Position numbers and translations under genes: made by a program. From NCBI GenBank assembly GCA_016936175.1, contig JAFGPN010000015.1, forward strand, positions 16,636 through 80,635: a DNA stretch of 64,000 bases, written 5' to 3'. The notes below the pieces were generated by a model. It did no database searches and was not told the origin of the DNA. It saw only the letters and a program-made list of their open reading frames with translations. This stretch comes from Patescibacteria group bacterium. Its GTDB lineage: Bacteria > Patescibacteriota > Kazan-3B-28 > UBA10110. Below are positions 3-51,347 of the stretch, in pieces. Every line of letters begins with the position of its first letter. Position 1 is the first letter of the stretch.

Positions 3-908
3 TTCCAGCGTGTCCACATTGTCCGCGAGGTCTTGACTCGTGTCAGCATTCCGACTTTGGGAGAGTTCCAGGAGTTCATGGACACCAAGGTTCTTCTCTG
101 GCTACCCAAGCCGTCACGCTCGCCTAAACTGCCCAAGGGCAACTGGCAAGCAGAACGGCTGAAGATTCAACAGAAAGCCTGGGTCAAGGTCGGAATTGAT
201 TTGCCACAGGCTCTGTGCGACAAGTTCGTCGACATTCTGAACCAGTGTGGCGCAGAGTTGGTGGCTCAACTTGAGGCCTACGGCTTCATGTTTGTCATCA
301 CAGCGGATGTCACCTGGACTGCCAGCACTTGGCCAACAGGATGGGTTAAGCCCAACGACTGGTACTGGCAAGTGTTGAATGGCGGCAGGGTCATCGGCAG
401 TGATGATAAGCCCATTGAGGCCTGTCGGCTTCTGGGCCATATCCTGCTGATCGACACCCGACAGAAGCCCCGGTACGCCGGTGGCCATCAGCGTTGGAAG
501 GACGATGTGTTCATGGAGGCGCTCATCGGCTACTTGCAGGATCGCAAGCTCCTGCTAGTGAACGATAATGCTGGCCGTGGCAGTCGGTTCTACCTGAGCC
601 GTAACGATTATACCAACGTCGTAGCCCCGGCCTTTGTGGAAGCTCTCCAACAGCTCGGCGTTCCGGTTCAAACGGCTCGCCTCGAATACTGCCCGGAGCA
701 TTCTGCTCTCTGCCAGCTGTTCAACTCGCCCCGAAAGGATAATGGCAAGACGAACACTTGGCTGTGGTTCCAGGAGTACCTGGACTCGTCCGAGGGCTCG
801 CTGGGTGGCGGGGACTCCGACGACGGTGGTCTTGCGGACGTCGGCTACGACGACTCCGGCGGTCGCTGGGACTACGCATCTGGTTCGCTCGTGGCAGTTC
901 TGGCCTAG
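3..908 (+). CDS. DGR target protein, 5'-partial; C-terminal variable region likely in a C-type-lectin-like fold
   Basis: Frame 0 is open from the window edge to TAG at 906-908, so the in-window TTG at 33 is probably not the true start. The last ~40 codons are the VR copy of the TR/VR pair. The C-terminus is Gly/Asp/Ser-rich with an xRWxY motif. Confidence 0.7.
   Translation, partial: FQRVHIVREVLTRVSIPTLGEFQEFMDTKVLLWLPKPSRSPKLPKGNWQAERLKIQQKAWVKVGIDLPQALCDKFVDILNQCGAELVAQLEAYGFMFVITADVTWTASTWPTGWVKPNDWYWQVLNGGRVIGSDDKPIEACRLLGHILLIDTRQKPRYAGGHQRWKDDVFMEALIGYLQDRKLLLVNDNAGRGSRFYLSRNDYTNVVAPAFVEALQQLGVPVQTARLEYCPEHSALCQLFNSPRKDNGKTNTWLWFQEYLDSSEGSLGGGDSDDGGLADVGYDDSGGRWDYASGSLVAVLA
780..899 (+). 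repeat. DGR variable repeat (VR) at the 3' end of the target gene
   Basis: 120 bp matching 1200-1319 except at 15 positions. Every mismatch has A in the 1200-1319 copy and G (13 times), T or C (once each) here. Confidence 0.85.
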
Positions 909-943
909 GTATTGATCATTTGGTTTTCTCGGACTTTGGTCCC

Positions 944-975
944 GGCGGGGTTGCTTGCAACCCCGCCATTTTTGT
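944..975 (+). terminator. GC-rich hairpin plus T-run just downstream of VR and the target stop (terminator, possibly a DGR homing-associated hairpin)
   Basis: ggcggggttgc / gcaaccccgcc perfect inverted repeat followed by atttttg. Confidence 0.55.
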
Positions 976-1199
976 ATAGTTATTTTGATGCGATAGAGCA
1001 TAGATTACTACGGTAACTATCGTCGCTCTCCCTTTTGGGACAGCCAGAGTTTATAGCCTAGGTTGGTTATAGAGAGCGCTAAACCTAAACGGGAAACTGC
1101 GTGTCGACTACTAAGCTTCAATGGGTGAAGCAGATAAAATACAGGCAATCTATACGAGTTTGTTTGCCAGTGACTTTGGGTGGTAGGCGACATTAACGA

Positions 1200-1319
1200 C
1201 TGGACTCGTCCGAGAACTCGCTGAATGGCGGGAACTCCGACAACGGTGGTCTTACGAACGTCGGCTACAACAACTCCGGCAATCGCTGGAACAACGAATC
1301 TGGTTCGCTCGTGGCAGTT
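1200..1319 (+). repeat. DGR template repeat (TR)
   Basis: Non-coding copy of VR. It carries adenines at all 15 VR-variable positions. In the target frame it encodes 10 AAC/AAT (Asn) codons in 40 codons, the classic DGR TR signature. Confidence 0.85.
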
Positions 1320-1362
1320 TCTCGCGTTGGTTAATTAGGGGCGGGGGATCTACTCCCGCCCT

Positions 1363-1741
1363 TTAATTGTATTTCTTGATCCAACCACCAAGCATTTTGC
1401 CGATTTCCTGTAACTTACTCTGCAAAACTAAATAGGATTTTTCGTTCAAAGCCTGAACGTCATATCCCAACCGGATTTGCAACTTCACTAAGTCTAGTAG
1501 TCCACTGGCTCTAATCAGAACTTCCATTCTGCCTCGTTCGGGCGTAATAGGCGCTTGAAGAACACACTCAATTAACTCTAATAGCTTCATCTGGGTCATT
1601 TGACCCAAAGTATACTTCTCAACTTTAGGATATTTCAGAAGATGCCCATGAAACTGTTTGTAAAACTCGTACAGTCTCAGAATAATAGGGATTTCTCCAA
1701 AACCATGAGGGGGGGGGCTTAATAGGAAAGTTATTTTTCAT
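1363..1741 (-). CDS. avd: DGR accessory variability determinant (Avd), four-helix-bundle / 23S rRNA intervening-sequence protein family
   Basis: Translation contains YPKVEKYTLGQ and a C-terminal QEIGKMLGGWIK, both hallmarks of the Avd / four-helix-bundle family. The track ORF (TTG at 1608) is open upstream to 1737. The ATG at 1741-1739 is in frame only if the 9-G tract at 1709-1717 is 8 G, giving 125 aa, Avd-sized. Confidence 0.75.
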
Positions 1742-2794
1742 AATGGTGTTTTTGCGGAGATTATTTCGTTAGAGAACCTATTCTTAGCCTGGACAGAGTT
1801 TCGGAAAGGAAAGCGGAACAAGTCTGATGTCCAAGCATTCGAACTCCATCTCGAAGATAACATATTTGCTCTGCACGAGGAGCTGGCGGATGGCACCTAC
1901 CGCCATGGCGGGTACCAACAGTTTCGTATCTCCGACCCGAAGCCTCGCCTGATCAGCAAGGCATCCGTCCGTGACCGGCTACTCCATCACGCCGTCTACC
2001 GGATTTTATACCCGGCGTTTGATAAAACCTTCATCTTCGATAGCTACTCCTGTCGGAAGAGTAAGGGGACGCATCGGGGCTTCTTTAGGTTAGCAGAGAT
2101 GGCTCGGCAGGTTAGCAGAAACTACACTAGTCCCTGTTGGGCGTTGAAGTTAGATATTCGCAAGTTCTTCGATAGCGTGGATCATGGGGTGTTGATTGGA
2201 CTATTGCGAGAAAAGATGGCAGATACACAGTTGCTAGGATTGTTGGAGAATATTATTGGCAGTTTCCATACTTGTCATGCTGAATTTAGTTCAGCATCTA
2301 AGGTCCTGAAACAAGTTCAGGATGACAGAGTGAGTGGCAAAGGGATGCCACTTGGGAATTTGACTTCTCAATTGTTTGCTAATATCTATCTCGACCCCTT
2401 GGATAAGTTCGCGAAACATTACCTAAAGGCTATGTATTATTTGCGCTATGCCGACGATTTTATCTTTTTGTCGGATAACCTAGACGAACTGATGGGCTAC
2501 CTGGTGGAAGTTGCCCGATTCTTGAAGTCGAAGTTAAAGCTTCAGCTTCATCCCAATAAGCTTATCCTGAGAAAGTTAAAGTGGGGGATAGACTATGTTG
2601 GGTACGTCGCCCTGCCGCATTACAATCTGCCGAGGAGAAAAACTGTCAAACTGATTCTGCGGCAGATTGCCAGACGGAAAGATGCTGGCAATGAAGATGC
2701 ATTAGCCAAAGCCTTGTCCTCGTATCTGGGGTACTTACGGCATGTGGAGGCCCATAAGCTGACAAAACGCATAACTGATACCATAAAGGTATGA
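1709..2794 (+). CDS. DGR reverse transcriptase
   Basis: Open frame from 1709. The N-terminus ENLFLAWTEFRKGKRNK matches RT motif 0. GMPLGNLTSQLFANIYL is the DGR-specific motif 4 ending in SQ, and YLRYADDFIF is the YADD catalytic box. The track's first ATG at 2099 is internal. The ATG at 1705 comes into frame if the G-tract is 8 G. The stop overlaps the uvrC start (ATGA at 2791-2794). Confidence 0.85.
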   Translation, partial: GGGLNRKVIFHNGVFAEIISLENLFLAWTEFRKGKRNKSDVQAFELHLEDNIFALHEELADGTYRHGGYQQFRISDPKPRLISKASVRDRLLHHAVYRILYPAFDKTFIFDSYSCRKSKGTHRGFFRLAEMARQVSRNYTSPCWALKLDIRKFFDSVDHGVLIGLLREKMADTQLLGLLENIIGSFHTCHAEFSSASKVLKQVQDDRVSGKGMPLGNLTSQLFANIYLDPLDKFAKHYLKAMYYLRYADDFIFLSDNLDELMGYLVEVARFLKSKLKLQLHPNKLILRKLKWGIDYVGYVALPHYNLPRRKTVKLILRQIARRKDAGNEDALAKALSSYLGYLRHVEAHKLTKRITDTIKV

Positions 2795-4833
2795 GTAGAG
2801 CGTTTAAGCCAAATTTGCAGAAGATACCGGGAAGCCCCGGAGTGTATTTAATGTATGGAGGGAGATTGCCACGCTCCGCTCGCAATGACGATTCATTTGT
2901 TTCTGGGTCCCCGGGTCACGCCCGAGGACAAGAGGAAAAAGTAATTTATGTGGGAAAAGCACTCAATTTGCGCAAAAGGGTGTCTTCGTACTGGAAACAA
3001 CCGACTAAGCAGAGCACCAAGACGCAAGCGCTGATAAAGCAAGTAACAAGATTAGATTTCATCGCTACTGACACCGAAGCCGAGGCGCTGATATTGGAAA
3101 ACGAGTTAATTAAAAAATACCAGCCGCAATATAATGTGCTATTGCGGGATGACAAATCATTCCAATATATTCGGATTGGGTTAGATCAAAAATTTCCTGA
3201 GATAGCCTCTGTTCGTCGGGTAAACCCAGCGGATATTAAAAGTCGAGACCCTAATCGGCCAAGATACTTTGGCCCTTATACCGCCGGGGGAACAGTAAAA
3301 AATACTCTCAAGCTGTTAAATAGCATATTTCCGCTTTGCGGGAAGGCGCGAGAGTTGAATCAGCATTACGATTCTGGACATCCGCCCGGACAAAAGTCCC
3401 TTCGGACGGGAGCCAGAATGACGGGAGGGGGATTAAAGGCGCCGTGCCTTAACTATCACCTGGGGCGATGTTTGGGGGTGTGTGTCGGCAAGGCCACTGC
3501 ATCCGATTATCGCCATGCTATTAATGAGATAGTAAAGTTTTTGAATGGCGATACCAAAGATGTAATTAAATATCTGCAAATTCGGATGTCGAAGTTATCA
3601 AGCGAGAGGAGATTTGAAGAAGCGGCGCGGTTGAGGGACAGGATAAATTCGTTAGAGCAATTATTTGAACAACAAAAAGTATCTCGGCCAAAAGACCTGG
3701 AACAGGATTTCTTGGGCTGGTTGGTCGAAGGCGAAAAGATGATAGTCTCTCGCGCGCAGGTGCGCGGCGGAAGGCTATTGGGCCAGCAGATATTTGTGTT
3801 GCGCGCACCGTTAAATAATGTGGAGGCTAATCTAATGTCGCAGGCGATTATAACCATTTACGATAAGGTATTCGAAGATCTGCCACGAGAAATTATTGTG
3901 CCGGTGTTGCCAGAAGATGCTGGTGCGATTGAAAAGTGGCTGAGTGATAGGCGAGCCAACCCCACCCAACCTCCCCTTGGGAAGGGGAGGAGTGAAATTA
4001 ATCCCCTCCTTTCCAAGGAGGGGGAGGGGGTGGTTGGGAGGAGAGGAGGGGTTCGTATTTTAGTGCCACAAAAGGGACCTAATCAAAAATTATTATCATT
4101 AGCCCAGCGCAATGCCGCTCAACATTCCGGCTCTTTATTAGATGTCGATGAGCGTTTAGGTGTAAAAAAAGCAATAGTAGACCTAAAAAATCTGTTGAAA
4201 CTAAAAAAATTGGAGCGGCTGGAAGCCTACGATATCTCGCATCTGGGTGGCACCCACACCGTCGGCTCGATGGTGGTGTTTAAAGATGGTAAGCCAGACA
4301 AGAATGGTTATCGGAGATTTAGAATCAAAACTGTGCCCGGGATTGATGATTATGCGGCGTTAGGTGAAGTGATAACGAGAAGGTTGAGCCCTAAGCGCAG
4401 AGCAGATAAAAGATTCGCAGCCGGTTTGCCGGATGCGATATTAATTGATGGCGGCAAAGGTCAACTTAGTTCGGTGTTAAAACACGTTTCGGTGGATGAC
4501 AAAAAGAAGATTCGGTTTTTTAGTTTAGCCAAACGAGAAGAAGAGGTGTTTTTGCCAAACAGATCGGGAGCAGCAGTCCTGTCCAAAAGTTCGGTGGCGT
4601 TGCAGATGTTGCAAAGACTGCGAGACGAGGCGCATCGATTTGCTATTGGTTATCAAACTTCGCTCAAAACCAAACAGTTGGTAGGGGATACAGAAAAGAT
4701 GGTTGGTATCGGAGCCACCACCCGTAAGAAATTGGTGAAACAATTTGGCAGTCTTGCCACTGCCCGATGCGCCAGTGATAGCGAGCTTGCTCAAGTTTTG
4801 AGTCCCAAACAAATCCAATCTTTCCGATCATAA
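2791..4833 (+). CDS. uvrC: excinuclease ABC subunit C (UvrC), with three in-frame repeat-derived insertions
   Basis: GIY-YIG N-terminus (PGVYLMYGG...KVIYVGKALNLRKRVSSY), an LRDDKS motif and the UvrC C-terminal domains. It is 680 aa against about 610 typical. Confidence 0.9.
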   Translation: MSRAFKPNLQKIPGSPGVYLMYGGRLPRSARNDDSFVSGSPGHARGQEEKVIYVGKALNLRKRVSSYWKQPTKQSTKTQALIKQVTRLDFIATDTEAEALILENELIKKYQPQYNVLLRDDKSFQYIRIGLDQKFPEIASVRRVNPADIKSRDPNRPRYFGPYTAGGTVKNTLKLLNSIFPLCGKARELNQHYDSGHPPGQKSLRTGARMTGGGLKAPCLNYHLGRCLGVCVGKATASDYRHAINEIVKFLNGDTKDVIKYLQIRMSKLSSERRFEEAARLRDRINSLEQLFEQQKVSRPKDLEQDFLGWLVEGEKMIVSRAQVRGGRLLGQQIFVLRAPLNNVEANLMSQAIITIYDKVFEDLPREIIVPVLPEDAGAIEKWLSDRRANPTQPPLGKGRSEINPLLSKEGEGVVGRRGGVRILVPQKGPNQKLLSLAQRNAAQHSGSLLDVDERLGVKKAIVDLKNLLKLKKLERLEAYDISHLGGTHTVGSMVVFKDGKPDKNGYRRFRIKTVPGIDDYAALGEVITRRLSPKRRADKRFAAGLPDAILIDGGKGQLSSVLKHVSVDDKKKIRFFSLAKREEEVFLPNRSGAAVLSKSSVALQMLQRLRDEAHRFAIGYQTSLKTKQLVGDTEKMVGIGATTRKKLVKQFGSLATARCASDSELAQVLSPKQIQSFRS

Positions 4834-4837
4834 CCCT

Positions 4838-5045
4838 TGTCCCCGGGCGTGACCCGGGGACCCAGAAATAAACAAAAAGCCCTTTGTCATCCTGAACTTG
4901 CCTGCCCGTTTCGTAGCCTCGGGCGAAGGCAGGAATCCATTTTTCTGTCATCCTGAGCGGAGCGTTAGCATAGTCGAAGGATATAGTTCTGCTGTACGGT
5001 AGAACACTATCGCTAGATTCTTCACTACGTTCAGAATGACAAGAC
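4838..5045. repeat. cluster of four short hairpin repeats (GTCCCCGGG..CCCGGGGAC type and GTCATCCTGA..CAGGATGAC type)
   Basis: Inverted-repeat hairpins whose motifs recur elsewhere in the window at 2866-2937, 13449-13482, 15341-15394, 27421-27509 and 57546-57633. Confidence 0.7.
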
Positions 5046-6668: not shown

Positions 6669-9557
6669 ATGGAAGGCTTGGGCTCGCTCATCTTAATGGC
6701 GTTACTGGTGGTGGGGTGGCTGGCAGTAGCCGCTTTTTTGACGTGGTGGGTAATTAAAAAATTTGCCCAAAAAAAGGGTGAGGTTTCTACAACGCCAATC
6801 TTGACTACTTCGGAAGATGCGGTGTTGATAGCAATCGAAGTGCCAAAAGAAAACGAAAAGACTCCCTTAGCGGCCGAGACGATGTTTTCTAGTCTTCATG
6901 GCATTGGTAATCATCGGTTGAGTTTTGAAATTGAGGCTAAAGAGAAATCGGTTAGATTTTATGCTTGGGTCCCCACCAGCTTAAGAAACTATGTCGAGGG
7001 TCAGTTATACGCCCAATACCCAGACATGAACGTATTAGAAACAAAAGATTATTCGGATCCGACCCAGTTACCAGAGAACAGCGTGGGGGCTTCAACCGAG
7101 CTACTGTTTACGAAAAAGAATTTTTTCCCGATAAAAACGTTTATCAACTTTACCGTTGATCCACTGGCCGCTATTACCGGTATGTTGGGTAAATTGGGAG
7201 AGGATGAACATATCTGGATTCAATTAGTGATTAGTCCGGAGAGCAATCGGTGGCGAGACAGAGCGATGGCGTTTATCTCGGCGGTAAAATCTGGTCGTTC
7301 ACCCGAGATTGGCGCGGCCATTACCAAGAGTATATTTTCTCTAGCCGGGGATGTGGTTGGTTCTTTATCGCGTGGCGGTGGTTACGAGGCGAAAAAAGAA
7401 AACACTAAAGTAGAGCTATCTCCCGGCACCGACCTAATGCTAAAGGCTATTGAGGAAAAGAGCTCAAAGCTGGGCTTTAAAACCAAGATTCGATTGGTAG
7501 TGTGGGACAAGGATGAGGCGTCGGCTAAGGCCAAGCTTCAGTTAGCTTTAGGCACCTTTAAGCAGTTTGACACTACTAATTTAAACTCGTTTAAGGCTGG
7601 TAAATATGTTAATAATCGGGCAAATATTCTAACCACCTATAACCGACGGGAGTTGGGCAAGGACCCAACAATTCTTAATGTAACCGAGCTAGCCTCGATC
7701 TACCACTTACCCAATGTAAGCGTGGCGACTCCGAATATCGTTTGGGCTGGTTCGCGTAAGGGGGAACCGCCCGCCAACTTACCTTTGGTCGGTGAGGTAC
7801 CAGCGGAGGAGCTAACTACATTAGCCACCACTAACTTTCGGGGCACTCAAGAGAAGTTTGGAATTAAATTAAAAGATCGTCATCGCCATATCTACATCAT
7901 CGGTAAGAGCGGCACCGGTAAGTCAACTCTGCTTAATAATATGGCAGTTGATGATATTCGGGAACGGCGTGGGGTGGGGATTATCGACCCACATGGCGAC
8001 TATGTCGATACCGTTTTAAAGTACGTGCCAAACTATCGGGTAAACGATGTAATTTTATTTGATCCCGGCGATCGCGATTTTCCGATTGCGGTAAATATGT
8101 TAGAACTGCGTGACCCTAAGTATAAGGTAGTGGTGGCCTCCGGGGTGGTAGGTATCTTTAAAAAGATCTTTGGCTTTTCTTGGGGTCCCAGGCTTGAGTA
8201 CTGGCTGAGTTCGGCGGTAATGGCGTTGTTAGACTACCCCGATTCAACCTTAATGATGATTCCTGGATTATTTACCGACGCCGATTTTCGGGACAAGGTT
8301 ATCGCCAAGATATCTGACCCTCTAATTAAAAGACGGTGGATCTCCGAATATAACCAGCTCGATCAGAAACAACGTAACGAAACTATTTCGCCCATTTTAA
8401 ACAAGGTAGGCCAGTTCTTATCTTCGCCAGTGATTCGTAATATTGTTGGCCAGCCTCATTCCAGTATTGATTTTCGTAAGGTAATGGATGAGGGCAAGAT
8501 TCTGTTAGTAAAATTAGCCAAGGGTATTATCGGCGAGGATAACGCCGCCTTGATGGGCGCCATGATTATCACTCAGTTGCAGTTAGCCGCAATGTCTCGG
8601 GCCGATGTGGTCGAAGCAGGGCGCAAAGATTTTTATCTGTATGTGGACGAGTTTCAGAACTTTGCCACCGAATCGTTTCAGGCAATTCTATCTGAGGCTC
8701 GTAAGTATCACTTATCTCTCACTCTGGCTAACCAGTATATGGATCAGTTAATCCCCGAAGTAAGCGACGCCATCTTTGGTAACGTTAATACCATCATTGC
8801 CTTCCGGGTTGGCGGGGATGACGCTAAACAGTTGGAGAAAGAATTTGCCCCAATATTCGAAGCTAATGATTTGGTCAATTTAAATATGTTTAACATCTAC
8901 ATCAAGCTGTCAATCGATAATATTACCACTAACGCCTTCTCAGCCCAGACTCTGCCGTATCCGGATGATTTTAACCATAACGAAGAAAAGATTATCAAAG
9001 CTTCTCGTGAGCGCTATTCTCGTCCAGCCAGTTTTGTAGAAGAGAGGATAGATAAGGCCCTGGCTATTCCGGAGCCACCGCCTCGACCCGCTCCCCTGGC
9101 CGCGTCCCGCGACCGCGGGCAGGCTCGGACGGGTCAACCGAGATGGGAGAGGCCAACCGGACGGAGCCAAGCGCAGATGGGTCAGTCGCGGCGACCACAG
9201 GGCGATCAGGATTTTCAAAGGCCTCAACCACCAAAAAGGAGTCTGCCTGATCGACCAGTGCCGTTTCGGCCGGCGATGAAGGTGGAACCTCCCAAGCAGG
9301 TTTCCCCTGCGCCACAACCTAAACGTAAACCGGACGATTCTTTGCTAAAAAAGGTGATATCGGCGATGGAGAAGCAGAGGCCGTGGGTGCCTGGTCAGAA
9401 GCCAGCTAAACCCAATCCGGTTGCCGATCTCAATTCAGATAAAAAATCGATTGAGGATATTAGAAGGCAGAAATCGGATGAAGCGCAAAACAAGCCTAAC
9501 GAATCAATCCTGCTTGATGAAGACAGGGGTGAGATCAATCTATCAAATGACAAGTAG
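6669..9557 (+). CDS. membrane-anchored DUF87 / TraD-VirD4-like (type IV coupling protein-like) P-loop ATPase with a disordered Pro/Arg/Gln-rich C-terminal tail
   Basis: N-terminal TM helix, Walker A IIGKSGTGKST, Walker B YLYVDEFQNF, and a conserved GDY/HxxxD region. It has a paralog at 17243-19681. Confidence 0.7.
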   Translation: MEGLGSLILMALLVVGWLAVAAFLTWWVIKKFAQKKGEVSTTPILTTSEDAVLIAIEVPKENEKTPLAAETMFSSLHGIGNHRLSFEIEAKEKSVRFYAWVPTSLRNYVEGQLYAQYPDMNVLETKDYSDPTQLPENSVGASTELLFTKKNFFPIKTFINFTVDPLAAITGMLGKLGEDEHIWIQLVISPESNRWRDRAMAFISAVKSGRSPEIGAAITKSIFSLAGDVVGSLSRGGGYEAKKENTKVELSPGTDLMLKAIEEKSSKLGFKTKIRLVVWDKDEASAKAKLQLALGTFKQFDTTNLNSFKAGKYVNNRANILTTYNRRELGKDPTILNVTELASIYHLPNVSVATPNIVWAGSRKGEPPANLPLVGEVPAEELTTLATTNFRGTQEKFGIKLKDRHRHIYIIGKSGTGKSTLLNNMAVDDIRERRGVGIIDPHGDYVDTVLKYVPNYRVNDVILFDPGDRDFPIAVNMLELRDPKYKVVVASGVVGIFKKIFGFSWGPRLEYWLSSAVMALLDYPDSTLMMIPGLFTDADFRDKVIAKISDPLIKRRWISEYNQLDQKQRNETISPILNKVGQFLSSPVIRNIVGQPHSSIDFRKVMDEGKILLVKLAKGIIGEDNAALMGAMIITQLQLAAMSRADVVEAGRKDFYLYVDEFQNFATESFQAILSEARKYHLSLTLANQYMDQLIPEVSDAIFGNVNTIIAFRVGGDDAKQLEKEFAPIFEANDLVNLNMFNIYIKLSIDNITTNAFSAQTLPYPDDFNHNEEKIIKASRERYSRPASFVEERIDKALAIPEPPPRPAPLAASRDRGQARTGQPRWERPTGRSQAQMGQSRRPQGDQDFQRPQPPKRSLPDRPVPFRPAMKVEPPKQVSPAPQPKRKPDDSLLKKVISAMEKQRPWVPGQKPAKPNPVADLNSDKKSIEDIRRQKSDEAQNKPNESILLDEDRGEINLSNDK
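9086..9118. repeat. 33-nt GC-rich hairpin element, inverted copy of 11588-11620, embedded in-frame in the ATPase C-terminal tail
   Basis: cccctggccgcgtcccgcgaccgcgggcaggct is the exact reverse complement of 11588-11620. Confidence 0.8.
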
Positions 9558-17242: not shown

Positions 17243-19681
17243 ATGCTTATTTGGGTGGCAATTAGCTTAGTGCTGGTAGGACTCGCTATCGTCGGGTATG
17301 TTTTTTATACTGTATCAGTTCAGAAACGTAACAATGCTAAGCAAGCAGGTAGTGCAGTGGGACGGCGATTGTTTTTGGTTACCTTGCCCAAAGAGGTAAA
17401 GGAAGACGACAAAAACAAAGAGATTAGGGATTTAATTGCTCCGGCGGAGATTCTGCTTCGTAACCTACATTCGATTCAGGATAGTTTTAAAGGTGAGCAC
17501 ATCACATTAGAAATCATAGCCAAGGGTGGCCTGATTGGTTTCTATATTAGTGTGCCAAACAAACTCAGCACCTTATTGGAAAAGCAGATTACTGCTCAAT
17601 ATCCCGAAGCGGTAATCGAAGAGGTAGAAGACCCGAACATCTTCCCCGAACAGGGCCAGGTGGCTGCGGCTCAGCTTAAGCTAAAAAAGGAATCGGCTTA
17701 TCCGATTATGACCTATAAGTTATTCGAGAACGAAGCGCTCAACGCGCTAACCAATGCCTTAAGTAAACTAAATGAGGATAGCGAGGGAGCAGCGATTCAG
17801 GTCTCGATCCGACCAATATCCGATAAATGGCAGAAAAAGGGGAGAGCTATCGCCAACGCTATGCAACAAGGTAAATCCAGCAAAACCATCGCCGGCGGGG
17901 TAATGGAAGGCCTGCAAGGATTAATGATGCCCGGTAGTGGCAAGAAAGAAGATGCTCCCAAAGAAGAGAAAAAGCTAACCCCCACTCAAGAGAAGGTGGT
18001 AGAAGCGATTGGGGAGAAATCGTCTAAATCTGGATTTGAGGTATCTGTTCGAGTGATAGCCGCTTCGCCGACCAGGGAAGAGGCCCAAATAAATTTAAAC
18101 AATATTCTAAGCAGTTTTCACCAGTATAGTAGCTCTGCCAACAATCGGTTTACTTTGGACAAGGTGCCTGAGCATAAAGTTATCTCTCAGTTCATTTTTA
18201 GAATGTTTAATTTAGGCAAACCATATATTTTAAACACCGAAGAGATCGCTACCATCTGGCATCTACCCAATGCTCATTTGGATACTCCGAACATTCGTTG
18301 GTTAAAAGCTAAACGATTATCCCCACCAGACAGTTTGCCCAAAGAGGGGATAGTGTTAGGTAAAAACACTTATCGGGGGGTAGAAAATTTCATCCGCGTT
18401 AAAGAAGATGACCGGCGTCGGCATCTTTACTGCATCGGTAAAACCGGCACCGGTAAAACTACCTGGATGCAGAACTTAGCCCTGCAGGATATTCTGGACG
18501 GCAAGGGTGTTTGCGTAATTGATCCTCACGGAGATATGATCGATTGGCTGTTAGCACGAATTCCCAAAGAACGGGTTGATGATATTATTCATTTCTATCC
18601 GCCGGATCTCGAGCGGCCGATGGGTTTAAACATGTTAGAAGGGGGGAGTGCCGCCCATAAGGACATAATGGTGGCCGAGATGATCTCCATCTTCTATAAA
18701 TTATTTGATCCAACTGGCACTAGTCAGATGATTGGTCCGATGTTTGAACACTATATGCGTAATGCCATGTTGGCGTTATTGGCAGATGATGAAACCGGGG
18801 CTACTCTAATTGAGATTCCACGGATGTTCACGGATAAGGAATTTCGGGAGTACAAGCTCTCCAAAGTAACCGATCCGGCGGTGCGCCAGTTCTGGGTGCA
18901 GGAGTACCCTCAGTCTCAGCGCGGTCAGCAATCTGCCGACATGTTGAGTTACGTTATTAGTAAGATCGGCCGATTCCTGAGTAACGAGATGATGCGAAAC
19001 ATCGTGGGACAGGCTCGCTCTGCTTTTGATATCCGTAGGGTGATGGACGAGAGCAAGATTTTATTGGTTAATTTAGCCAAGGGTTTAACGGGGGATATCA
19101 ACAGTAATCTACTCGGATTTATTTTAGTATCGAAAATTCAGATGGCGGCTTTAGGTCGCGCCGATGTGCCCGAGAGTGAACGGAAAGATTTTTACTTATA
19201 TATCGATGAGTTCCAGAATGTTACTACCGATTCGATTGCCACAATCTTATCCGAAGCGCGCAAGTATCACTTAAACTTGGTGGTAGCGCATCAGTTTGTG
19301 GCCCAGCTCGAAGAAAAAATTCGTGACGCGGTGTTGGGCAATGTTGGCACGATGATTAGTTTTAGGATTGGCGCGCCCGATACCGAAGTCATTGGCAAGG
19401 AATTTGCGCCGGAAGTAAGCGAAAATGACTTAGTTAATATCGAGAATCGCAACGCCTACATCAAACTAATGGTAGATGGGGCGGCTACTAAGCCATTTAA
19501 CCTAACCGCTCTGCCGCCGATGGGTACGGCCAACCTCAAGGTAATGGATGCCTTAAAGAAGCTCTCGCGGCTTAAATTTGGCCGAGATAGACGAATTGTA
19601 GATATGGAGATTAGAGAAAGGGGTAGATTTATCACCGAATCTCAAAATAATCCGCCGTCAGAGCCGAAAAATCCGTTTTAA
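17243..19681 (+). CDS. membrane-anchored DUF87 / TraD-VirD4-like P-loop ATPase (paralog of 6669-9557)
   Basis: N-terminal TM helix, Walker A CIGKTGTGKTT, Walker B YLYIDEFQNV. Co-linear similarity to the first copy throughout. Confidence 0.7.
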   Translation: MLIWVAISLVLVGLAIVGYVFYTVSVQKRNNAKQAGSAVGRRLFLVTLPKEVKEDDKNKEIRDLIAPAEILLRNLHSIQDSFKGEHITLEIIAKGGLIGFYISVPNKLSTLLEKQITAQYPEAVIEEVEDPNIFPEQGQVAAAQLKLKKESAYPIMTYKLFENEALNALTNALSKLNEDSEGAAIQVSIRPISDKWQKKGRAIANAMQQGKSSKTIAGGVMEGLQGLMMPGSGKKEDAPKEEKKLTPTQEKVVEAIGEKSSKSGFEVSVRVIAASPTREEAQINLNNILSSFHQYSSSANNRFTLDKVPEHKVISQFIFRMFNLGKPYILNTEEIATIWHLPNAHLDTPNIRWLKAKRLSPPDSLPKEGIVLGKNTYRGVENFIRVKEDDRRRHLYCIGKTGTGKTTWMQNLALQDILDGKGVCVIDPHGDMIDWLLARIPKERVDDIIHFYPPDLERPMGLNMLEGGSAAHKDIMVAEMISIFYKLFDPTGTSQMIGPMFEHYMRNAMLALLADDETGATLIEIPRMFTDKEFREYKLSKVTDPAVRQFWVQEYPQSQRGQQSADMLSYVISKIGRFLSNEMMRNIVGQARSAFDIRRVMDESKILLVNLAKGLTGDINSNLLGFILVSKIQMAALGRADVPESERKDFYLYIDEFQNVTTDSIATILSEARKYHLNLVVAHQFVAQLEEKIRDAVLGNVGTMISFRIGAPDTEVIGKEFAPEVSENDLVNIENRNAYIKLMVDGAATKPFNLTALPPMGTANLKVMDALKKLSRLKFGRDRRIVDMEIRERGRFITESQNNPPSEPKNPF

Positions 19682-49973: not shown

Positions 49974-51347
49974 CTACTGGTTAAGCAGCAAATCGTGCAG
50001 GTGAGCGACCAGCATGGTGTCGGTAACTGGCGCTTGCTCGCGCGTTCGGAGGTCCTTGACCTGCCAGATGCCTTTTTCGAGCTCTTCTGGCCCACCGATT
50101 ACCAGGAGAGGAATCCCCTGTTTAACGGCATAAGCCAGCTGAGCCTTAAAGGCGGTGTCATCTCCGCAATGGAGTTCGGTGGCTAGACCGTTCTCTCTTA
50201 GCCGGTTGGCTACCTGGAGATACTTGGGCAGTGATGACTGGTCAAAGACTAGGATAAAGACCTGGGTGGCGGTGGTGGCAAGCTGTTGAAGGGCGTTGAG
50301 CTCCTCGAGAGCTGCGAACAACCGATCTACACCGATGGAGGCGCCGGTGGCAGGAACGCTGTCATTGGCGAACCTGCCGACGAGTCCGTCGTAGCGACCA
50401 CCCGAGAAGACACTGCCGATTGATGGCAGATCATCGAGAGAGGTCTCGAACACGGGGCCGGTATAGTAGCCGAGTCCCCGGGCGACGGACAGGTCAACCA
50501 CAACGCGATCATCGGGTACGCCCATGTTTTGAACGTATCCTCGGACCTGTTGTAGTTCCTGAATGCCGGCGTGCCCGATTTGCGTGGAATTGCCGAAGAA
50601 CTCGGCTGCCTCTTCTAGGGGCAGGGTGGAGTCTGCAGCAATCCGCAAGAACTCCTGCACGGTCTCAACGGCTCTGTCCGAAAGGTTGAGAGCCGTTTCG
50701 TCCAGCCTGTTGTCCGGTGGTCGTTGCAGGATCTTGGTGACCTCTTCCATACCGAGCTTGTCCATCCGATCCAAGATCTGGAACAGGATGTTGGCCTTGC
50801 TCCCAACGCCAATCATTTCTGCTAATCCATTGAGGATTTTGCGGTCGTTAATCTTAATCGTGACCCGGGGGATCTTGAGCGCCTGGAAGGTGCTCCAAAT
50901 AACCGCGATTACCTCGGCATCAGTCAGCATCGAACCGCTAAAGACGGTGTCAATGTCGAACTGATAAAAGCCGTTGTATCGGCCTTTCTGGCTGGTCTCG
51001 CCCCGGAACACTCGCCCAAGCTGGTAGCGCTTGAATGGTCGCGGCAGAGTGTTGCCGTAAGCCGCCACAACTCTCGCCAAGGGCACCGTCAGATCAAACC
51101 TGAGAGCTAGGGGCTCGTCGGTTTTATCTCCGAGAGAGACCTTGTAGATCTTCATGGCAGTGACCTCGTTTCCGGTCAGAACGCTCCAGCGCTCTACTTC
51201 CGGGGTATCGAGGGGCAAGAAGCCGAAGGATTGATAGACCTTCTCGATGGTGCGCAGGATTTGCGTCCTGCGAGTTTGTTCAACCGGTAGATAGTCCCTG
51301 AATCCCCCAGGGACCTCCGGCGCAATCAAGAGCGTCATGCTGGTCAC
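49974..51347 (-). CDS. hisS: histidyl-tRNA synthetase
   Basis: Class IIa motifs (GFRDYLP, FRGE) and a C-terminal anticodon-binding domain. It lies directly downstream of tRNA-His. Confidence 0.8.
   Translation of the reverse strand: MTSMTLLIAPEVPGGFRDYLPVEQTRRTQILRTIEKVYQSFGFLPLDTPEVERWSVLTGNEVTAMKIYKVSLGDKTDEPLALRFDLTVPLARVVAAYGNTLPRPFKRYQLGRVFRGETSQKGRYNGFYQFDIDTVFSGSMLTDAEVIAVIWSTFQALKIPRVTIKINDRKILNGLAEMIGVGSKANILFQILDRMDKLGMEEVTKILQRPPDNRLDETALNLSDRAVETVQEFLRIAADSTLPLEEAAEFFGNSTQIGHAGIQELQQVRGYVQNMGVPDDRVVVDLSVARGLGYYTGPVFETSLDDLPSIGSVFSGGRYDGLVGRFANDSVPATGASIGVDRLFAALEELNALQQLATTATQVFILVFDQSSLPKYLQVANRLRENGLATELHCGDDTAFKAQLAYAVKQGIPLLVIGGPEELEKGIWQVKDLRTREQAPVTDTMLVAHLHDLLLNQ

Follow-up and report, generated by a model that had tools for sequence, protein, structure and literature searches.

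The prototype of the diversity-generating retroelements (DGRs) is that of the Bordetella phage BPP-1 (mtd-avd-TR-brt), in which sequence is transferred with adenine-specific changes from a template repeat (TR) to a variable repeat (VR) that forms part of the target gene at its 3' end. In vitro, its reverse transcriptase (RT), bRT, misincorporates together with Avd at 52% of adenines and favours the T-yielding change (PMC7826257). Segments flanking the TR constitute the 'DGR RNA', which bind RT-Avd and hold the priming site, with the priming adenosine located in the 3' Spacer. According to Wu et al. (2018, PMC5758913), the layout TR-(avd)-RT, termed architecture B3, accounts for 90% of the DGRs found in the Candidate Phyla Radiation (CPR) and is nearly absent elsewhere. 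Here, we analyse a stretch of 64,000 nt from a Patescibacteria group bacterium (assembly GCA_016936175.1, contig JAFGPN010000015.1, positions 16,636 to 80,635, forward strand), referred to in its entirety as the window. The element at its 5' end is almost certainly a DGR, and it is very probable that it represents a chromosomal DGR of a Patescibacteria/CPR bacterium with the mechanism and the tract regulation proposed below. The start regions of its RT and avd genes share a G/C homopolymer, and the balance of the evidence leans slightly towards a role of this tract in gating both genes.

As in the BPP-1 element, transfer from TR to VR is adenine-specific, the target gene carries its VR 3'-terminally, AAY codons are the ones that vary and about half of the TR adenines are substituted. 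Its RT is homologous to bRT (closest solved structure, the Bordetella phage DGR RT 8ub7_A, 1e-44; group II intron RTs, 6.5e-18) and accompanied by an Avd-family protein; a GC hairpin is located downstream of the VR, and structured RNA flanks the TR. In contrast to BPP-1, the element is chromosomal rather than phage-borne, and avd, encoded on the opposite strand, separates TR from RT and overlaps the RT start. The structured RNA of the clade lies 5' of the TR, whereas BPP-1 has the 3' Spacer with its priming adenosine, and no mismatch pair of the IMH/IMH* type (initiation of mutagenic homing) was identified in the window element. Moreover, the clade is biased towards A>G changes (58%), whereas T is the commonest outcome for bRT, and in the window element a homopolymer lies where the 5' coding regions of the two genes overlap.

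Its gene order and strands, the radiation of its host and the lack of recognisable domains in the target make the element a member of the B3 DGRs of CPR and DPANN organisms; the excerpted B3 description (PMC5758913) makes no mention of an overlap of the avd and RT starts, a G/C tract or a covarying 5' leader. The tract itself resembles the poly-G/C contingency loci of Campylobacter, Neisseria and Haemophilus, in which a G/C run near the 5' end of an open reading frame (ORF) decides by its length between the on and off states, the length differs between near-identical genomes (observed here among relatives only) and many genomes are 'off'. It differs from them in that its hosts are CPR bacteria and in that it would gate a mutagenesis machine instead of a surface structure; reversible switching in a clone is a prediction here. 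Two divergent, overlapping genes read the tract, each on its own strand, so that two proteins would be switched at once.

Template and variable repeats

The target (variable protein) gene occupies positions 1-908 of the + strand (stop codon 906-908), with the window opening 49 codons into the gene. Ungapped comparison of its 3' end with the DNA downstream reveals a direct repeat of 120 columns at an offset of 420 nt, consisting of the VR (780-899, + strand), which comprises 40 codons and ends two codons short of the target stop, and the non-coding TR (1200-1319, + strand), which contains 28 adenines. The two copies differ at 15 positions. In all 15 cases the TR has an A, replaced in the VR by G (13), T (1) or C (1), and in all 15 cases the mismatch falls on position 1 or 2 of a codon in the target frame; 15 of the 28 TR adenines (54%) are thus altered. 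The TR base composition alone would place all 15 mismatches on A with a probability of ~3e-10. This adenine-only pattern had been the central claim of a preliminary description of the locus, and recomputation reproduced it exactly in every detail. Translation also bears out the accompanying claim that the template is rich in Asn codons that have been recoded in the VR: in the target frame the TR reads LDSSENSLNGGNSDNGGLTNVGYNNSGNRWNNESGSLVAV, with 10 AAY codons among its 40, while the VR reads LDSSEGSLGGGDSDDGGLADVGYDDSGGRWDYASGSLVAV, in which template Asn codons have become Gly, Asp or Tyr. The flanks of the two copies are unrelated on both sides, and no further VR-like copy was found across the 64 kb window.

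The last 22 nt of the VR (878-899, + strand) form an invariant block identical to TR positions 1298-1319 and occupy the position expected for the IMH. No IMH/IMH* difference was identified inside the repeat, and the flanks of VR and TR diverge directly past positions 899 and 1319, respectively. Both repeats are followed by a GC hairpin, as noted previously. The first (944-967, + strand; 10 bp stem and 4 nt loop, with a T run behind it) starts 45 nt 3' of the VR; it is the terminator of the target gene and sits at the location expected for a DGR cruciform, where relatives carry hairpins of other sequence. The second (1337-1363) separates the end of the TR from the stop codon of avd, which is convergently oriented, and probably acts as a bidirectional terminator; it is found in some relatives and is missing in others.

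Reverse transcriptase, avd and locus order

The avd gene (accessory variability determinant; 1363-1741, - strand) encodes a protein that matches the Pfam family bAvd above its cutoff (5.6e-16) and the NCBIfam model DivGenRetAVD under the equivalog cutoff (2.7e-19). A sequence search of the PDB with Avd gave a spurious match only. The RT gene (1705-2794, + strand) matches Pfam RVT_1 (1.6e-22); an open frame runs from 1709 up to the stop codon at 2792-2794, and the translation carries the motifs LGNLTSQ and YADD. Judged by its best structure match and these motifs, the enzyme is an RT of the DGR clade. The DGR-type RT reported earlier is therefore present as far as the open frame and the motifs are concerned, but the sequence as assembled provides no in-frame ATG, GTG or TTG start codon for either RT or avd.

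The order of target/VR, TR, avd (reverse strand) and RT corresponds to architecture B3. Downstream of RT follow uvrC, ligA, purA and gatA/gatB, neighbours that place the DGR on a chromosome. The RT stop and the uvrC start overlap in the sequence ATGA (2791-2794), so that the DGR is wedged directly against a housekeeping repair gene.

Within the RT gene, positions 2268-2340 encode a 19-aa in-frame insertion (TCHAEFSSASKVLKQVQDD) after the residues 'IIGSF', which is specified by two short DNA palindromes. The RTs of the Kazan group (L005-L007) contain insertions of other lengths at this site, and more distant RTs lack them.

Homopolymer in the avd/RT overlap

The longest G/C run of the window, a G9/C9 homopolymer (1709-1717), is located where avd and RT overlap antisense over 12 codons. 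It provides codons 3-5 of RT (Gly-Gly(-Gly)) and codons 9-11 of Avd (Pro-Pro-Pro); because both genes are read through this one homopolymer, its length sets the frame of avd and RT together. When the tract length was varied in silico, G8 yielded an RT of 362 aa starting from the ATG at 1705 and an Avd of 125 aa starting from the ATG at 1741 (minus strand), and G11 yielded proteins of 363 and 126 aa, respectively. With G10, stop codons are reached after 22 codons of RT and 21 codons of Avd. At the assembled length of G9 both genes are out of frame, and the element is hence 'off' as sequenced. In the on state, the antisense overlap spans 12 codons, the N-terminus of RT reads MRGGLNRKVIFH and that of Avd MKNNFPIKPPPH, and the ATG of each gene lies antisense to the His-12 codon of its partner.

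ATT or ATA start codons were considered for RT and Avd and dropped, because the G8 frames provide ATG starts and N-termini that match those of tract-less relatives. The initial view that the G run was a sequencing artefact was likewise rejected as the main explanation, given that the run is conserved throughout the clade and the frames are concordant on both strands.

Tract length in related loci

Related loci were collected by an RT profile search, which yielded 80 loci from species-representative genomes (GTDB) and 80 from JGI metagenomes. Nearly all titled genome records among these relatives are of CPR origin, the nearest belonging to the candidate division Kazan (68-73% identity). A TR/VR pair in matching order, with the repeats ~420 nt apart and adenine-specific mismatches, was found in 61 related loci (the genome set plus L003; 62 with the window). 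Pooled over the clade, 57% of the TR adenines are substituted, by G in 58%, T in 25% and C in 17% of the cases, and 4.7% of the mismatches are located at non-adenines. One group of near-identical metagenome contigs with a related RT (L105, L106, L109, L111, L112 and L119) has no detectable TR/VR pair within 2.5 kb upstream.

Runs of at least 8 G are present at the avd/RT junction in ~89 of 129 non-redundant related loci (~70%). Away from the junction, only 2 such runs occur in the 712 kb of these loci, with 3.8 expected by composition; these counts exclude the contig-end poly-C runs of L093 (1-41), L100 (1-15) and L142 (1-84), which are probable sequencing or assembly artefacts. The junction tracts range in length from 7 to 14, with most of them at 9-10. 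For each of the 40 tract-bearing GTDB loci, RT gains an in-frame ATG upstream of the tract in the very length class in which Avd is restored, which is almost never so in the other classes. As assembled, 16 of 62 tract-bearing loci are in frame, compared to 22 of 22 loci without a tract or with a decayed one (Fisher p=2e-10). In-frame loci number 9-10 of 40 in the genome set; among the metagenomes, an independent set, they number 6 of 22. Overall, 16 loci are in frame, 27 need a change of -1 and 18 a change of +1 (p=0.18 versus a uniform split).

The tract also differs between near-identical contigs. In one group its length is G7 (L103), G8 (L130, 'on') or G9 (L125 and L128), and in another it is G10 (L044) or G9 (L151 and L152). 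This variation indicates that slippage occurs at the DNA level.

In the source annotation of L003, whose tract is located at 7718-7725, avd is replaced by a 141-aa ORF on the opposite strand (7263-7688), and RT (7783-8778) is called from an internal TTG. The tract thus appears to mislead gene callers.

Diversification in related loci

Diversification was assessed in six groups of near-identical contigs that originate from different samples. L125 and L128 differ at 23 positions in 4.5 kb, of which 21 are located in the VR and 19 at TR adenines. A similar picture is obtained for L125 and L130 (24 differences; 20 in the VR, 19 at TR adenines), L137 and L138 (17; 17 and 14) and L147 and L144 (12; 10 and 9). 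For L021 and L022, 14 of 26 differences fall into the VR, all 14 of them at TR adenines, and for L126 and L131, which differ at 46 positions (plus 3 gaps) in 5.5 kb, there are 7 differences in the VR, again all 7 at TR adenines. Variation of the six groups at the TR-adenine positions of the VR shows that the clade is diversifying in nature. For the genome of the window, DGR activity and homing are presumed.

In L021, the TR (3040-3054) carries VR bases (G, G, G and C) at four positions at which the TR of L022 has an A. This suggests either gene conversion from VR to TR or an assembly chimera between the repeats.

Putative leader of the template transcript

The ~300 nt between the target terminator and the TR are non-coding. 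They contain the putative leader of the TR transcript (985-1199, + strand), which is preceded immediately by a -10-like TATAGT sequence (975-980) downstream of the target terminator; the leader promoter and the 5' and 3' ends of the transcript given here are predictions. An Rfam scan of positions 700-3000 at E<=1 returned no family. Nevertheless, several boxes are shared by the clade within the last ~110 nt before the TR, namely ACTGCTTGCC, ATAAAATACA, an invariant GTG, GGATG and GGCAA. The ATAAAATACA box is present in 39 of 61 loci, and its copy in the window (1134-1143) is single-stranded.

Three helices (all + strand) make up the predicted fold of this region. P1 is a long-range helix that closes the domain (1101-1106 and 1108-1113 pairing with 1181-1186 and 1188-1193), P2 is formed by 1115-1120 and 1126-1131, and P3 (1144-1148 with 1164-1168) is a hairpin that ends one base before the GTG at 1170-1172. 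For P1, analysed in 42 loci, 89.6% of the cells are paired, compared to a mean of 61.6% after shuffling, with none of 500 shuffles reaching the observed value and slid controls remaining at or below 59%. The P3 stem is placed by the minimum-energy fold in 42 loci; its covariation, analysed in 19 loci, amounts to 95.3% paired cells versus a shuffled mean of 75.2% (a value that none of 500 shuffles reached, with slid controls not exceeding 60%), with compensatory changes at 9 of 9 pairs. By analogy, the leader may serve as a recognition scaffold for RT-Avd; in that case, it would correspond in this clade to the 'DGR RNA' of Bordetella, but flank the template on its opposite side.

Target protein

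The full-length target protein (P0001, 350 aa) is 100% identical to 'hypothetical protein JXA59_02295 [Patescibacteria group bacterium]'. It has no match in Pfam or NCBIfam, and a profile search of PDB sequences remained empty. Iterated searches retrieved 22 homologues, and an exhaustive profile search expanded this unannotated family to at least 513 cluster representatives at E<=1e-3. The family alignment reveals a well conserved body and, in the last 40 residues, a fixed scaffold (RL.GG.S..GGLA.V....W...LAVL) with free positions in between. The columns substituted in the VR are those that vary between the scaffold residues of the family. Fold prediction of the C-terminus, proposed earlier with a C-type lectin or similar fold in mind, was carried out, and the lectin fold was left unconfirmed: the AlphaFold model has a predicted local distance difference test (pLDDT) score of 67 overall and of <50 over the VR. 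Other DGR targets have been shown to adopt the C-type lectin fold, whereas the fold of the window target could not be demonstrated as such.

Several proteins of 560-1160 aa (P0072, P0084, P0089, P0098, P0117, P0122, P0127 and P0134) likewise have the target domain at their C-terminus, in combination with a domain of the AAA_5 ATPases (MoxR/dynein-like) or of the Ser/Thr kinases. This arrangement, with a target domain C-terminal to AAA_5 or kinase domains, matches the CPR 'Midasin/AAA' group UVR4, as described by Wu et al. (PMC5758913), and the kinase-linked targets of cyanobacteria. In contrast to such fusions, the module in the window stands alone behind a helical N-terminal region. On the basis of their domain composition, the fusions hint at a role in intracellular sensing or signalling rather than at the cell surface.

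Neighbouring genes and repeats

The uvrC gene is associated with a 37-nt inverted repeat (95% complementary), one arm of which is located in the 5' part of the gene (2896-2932) and the other just past its stop codon (4836-4872). A second palindromic stretch (3960-4050) is translated in frame within uvrC (ANPTQPPLGKGRSEINPLLSKEGEGVVG), and a third copy of GTCCCCGGG is found at 50474. These repeats have the appearance of small palindromic elements that entered coding genes with the frame preserved. Two large genes for TraG/VirD4/HerA-like coupling ATPases (6669-9557 and 17243-19681) flank ligA, purA, gatA and gatB; the product of the former has a long Pro/Gln-rich C-terminal tail.

Discussion

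The presence of RT and Avd, the CPR-type gene order, the adenine signature and the existence of relatives that differ almost solely at the TR-adenine positions of the VR support the assignment of the locus to the DGRs that had been made from the repeats. In the mechanism we propose, the + strand would be transcribed from ~985 to ~1363, giving an RNA composed of the structured leader, the TR and a terminal hairpin. RT, together with Avd, would copy the TR into cDNA and misincorporate opposite template adenines, and the VR in the 3' part of the target would then be exchanged for the cDNA, with the scaffold residues left unchanged. In this manner, recoding could affect up to ~17 codons in which position 1 or 2 is an adenine in the TR (10 are AAY), within what would be a ligand-binding C-terminal module. 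Slippage of the tract, be it during replication (as heritable phase variation), during transcription or both, would make expression of the mutagenic machinery rare and stochastic, with both enzymes being on at G8 or G11 and both off at G9. A more specific proposal, which we put forward tentatively, is that the tract acts as a heritable and reversible phase-variation switch for Avd and RT. It would establish bet hedging at two levels: the contingency locus would select the few cells in which the mutator runs, and a ligand-binding protein would then be diversified by it.

Several observations weigh against the regulated, active DGR that we favour, and they bear on different alternatives. At the assembled G9, RT reaches a stop after 5 codons and Avd after 38; the JGI metagenome contigs, scanned for the shared 3' block of VR and TR, as well as the other collections searched contain no second sequence of the same species, and look-ups of the exact UvrC and target protein sequences yielded no source contig; and the A>G share of the window (13/15) lies at the upper end of the clade spectrum (p ~0.02). 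All this would fit a dead or decaying DGR whose RT and avd are true frameshift pseudogenes and whose VR is a frozen record. Such decay is nonetheless unlikely, because both frames are otherwise fully open with their catalytic motifs kept, all 28 TR adenines are retained and not a single non-adenine mismatch has accumulated. Moreover, about three quarters of the 62 related loci are equally out of frame, including lineages with VR turnover: L125 and L128 are both 'off' at G9, yet their VRs differ at 21 positions. Repeated independent pseudogenisation at one homopolymer only is implausible. An ordinary diverged segmental duplication of the 3' end of the gene, without any reverse transcription, would explain two 120-nt direct repeats 420 nt apart, but the strict directionality of the 15 differences, with its avoidance of codon position 3 and the chance probability given above, the adjacent RT and Avd and the matching pattern in 61 related loci render it vanishingly improbable.

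The remaining alternatives accept the DGR and concern the tract. Homopolymer lengths in metagenome assemblies can be miscalled. Runs of 9-14 are prone to errors, the collections used also contain poly-C artefacts at contig ends and some of the relatives come from long-read assemblies, so that the true sequence might be in frame (G8) and no switch exist. In that case, however, most assemblies should be in frame, while 16 are in frame as opposed to 27 and 18 that need correction by -1 and +1. The frame split is similar in two independent collections, and independent contigs agree on an out-of-frame length (G9 in L005, L085 and L095 as well as in L125 and L128). Assembly error would also leave unexplained why an unstable run is conserved at the exact same site in ~70% of the clade, and we regard it as unlikely, to the same degree as decay of the element. 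A stronger competitor, although still rather doubtful, is that the tract acts through slippage of RNA polymerase or ribosomal frameshifting, resulting in low constitutive expression without heritable switching. Slippage on long homopolymers is an established route to the expression of out-of-frame genes. The frame state across loci is indistinguishable from random, as if there were no selection for frame on the DNA length, and the VR turns over in lineages whose consensus is out of frame; the random split fits the phase-variation switch and, equally well, slippage at the RNA or ribosome level with an irrelevant DNA length. On the other hand, transcriptional slippage is best documented on A/T runs, with G/C runs forming more stable hybrids, and the tract differs in length in the DNA of near-identical contigs. 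The two mechanisms are not exclusive. In the literature searched, the scope of which did not include the CPR survey of Paul et al. (2017), there was no paper connecting DGRs with a homopolymer, phase variation, slippage or poly-G.

The DGR itself is one more member of a well-known class that is abundant in the CPR, whereas the homopolymer shared by two genes and the covarying leader are clade-wide and apparently undescribed. If the switch is real, annotation practice would change, since most RT and avd genes of this kind are now truncated or missed by gene callers. The leader RNA is a candidate for the element that RT-Avd recognises in the bacterial branch richest in DGRs and may be useful for the development of compact DGR mutagenesis tools. 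We know of no description of phase variation in CPR bacteria, and to our knowledge the tract switch, if true, would be the first contingency locus described in this radiation. Within the literature searched, it would likewise be the first DGR regulatory mechanism of its kind. According to a 2024 study, the signals and mechanisms by which mutagenic retrohoming is controlled have yet to be found; a hypermutable tract that is read by both genes of the machinery would, if confirmed, represent a compact stochastic answer to the question of how DGR mutagenesis is restrained.

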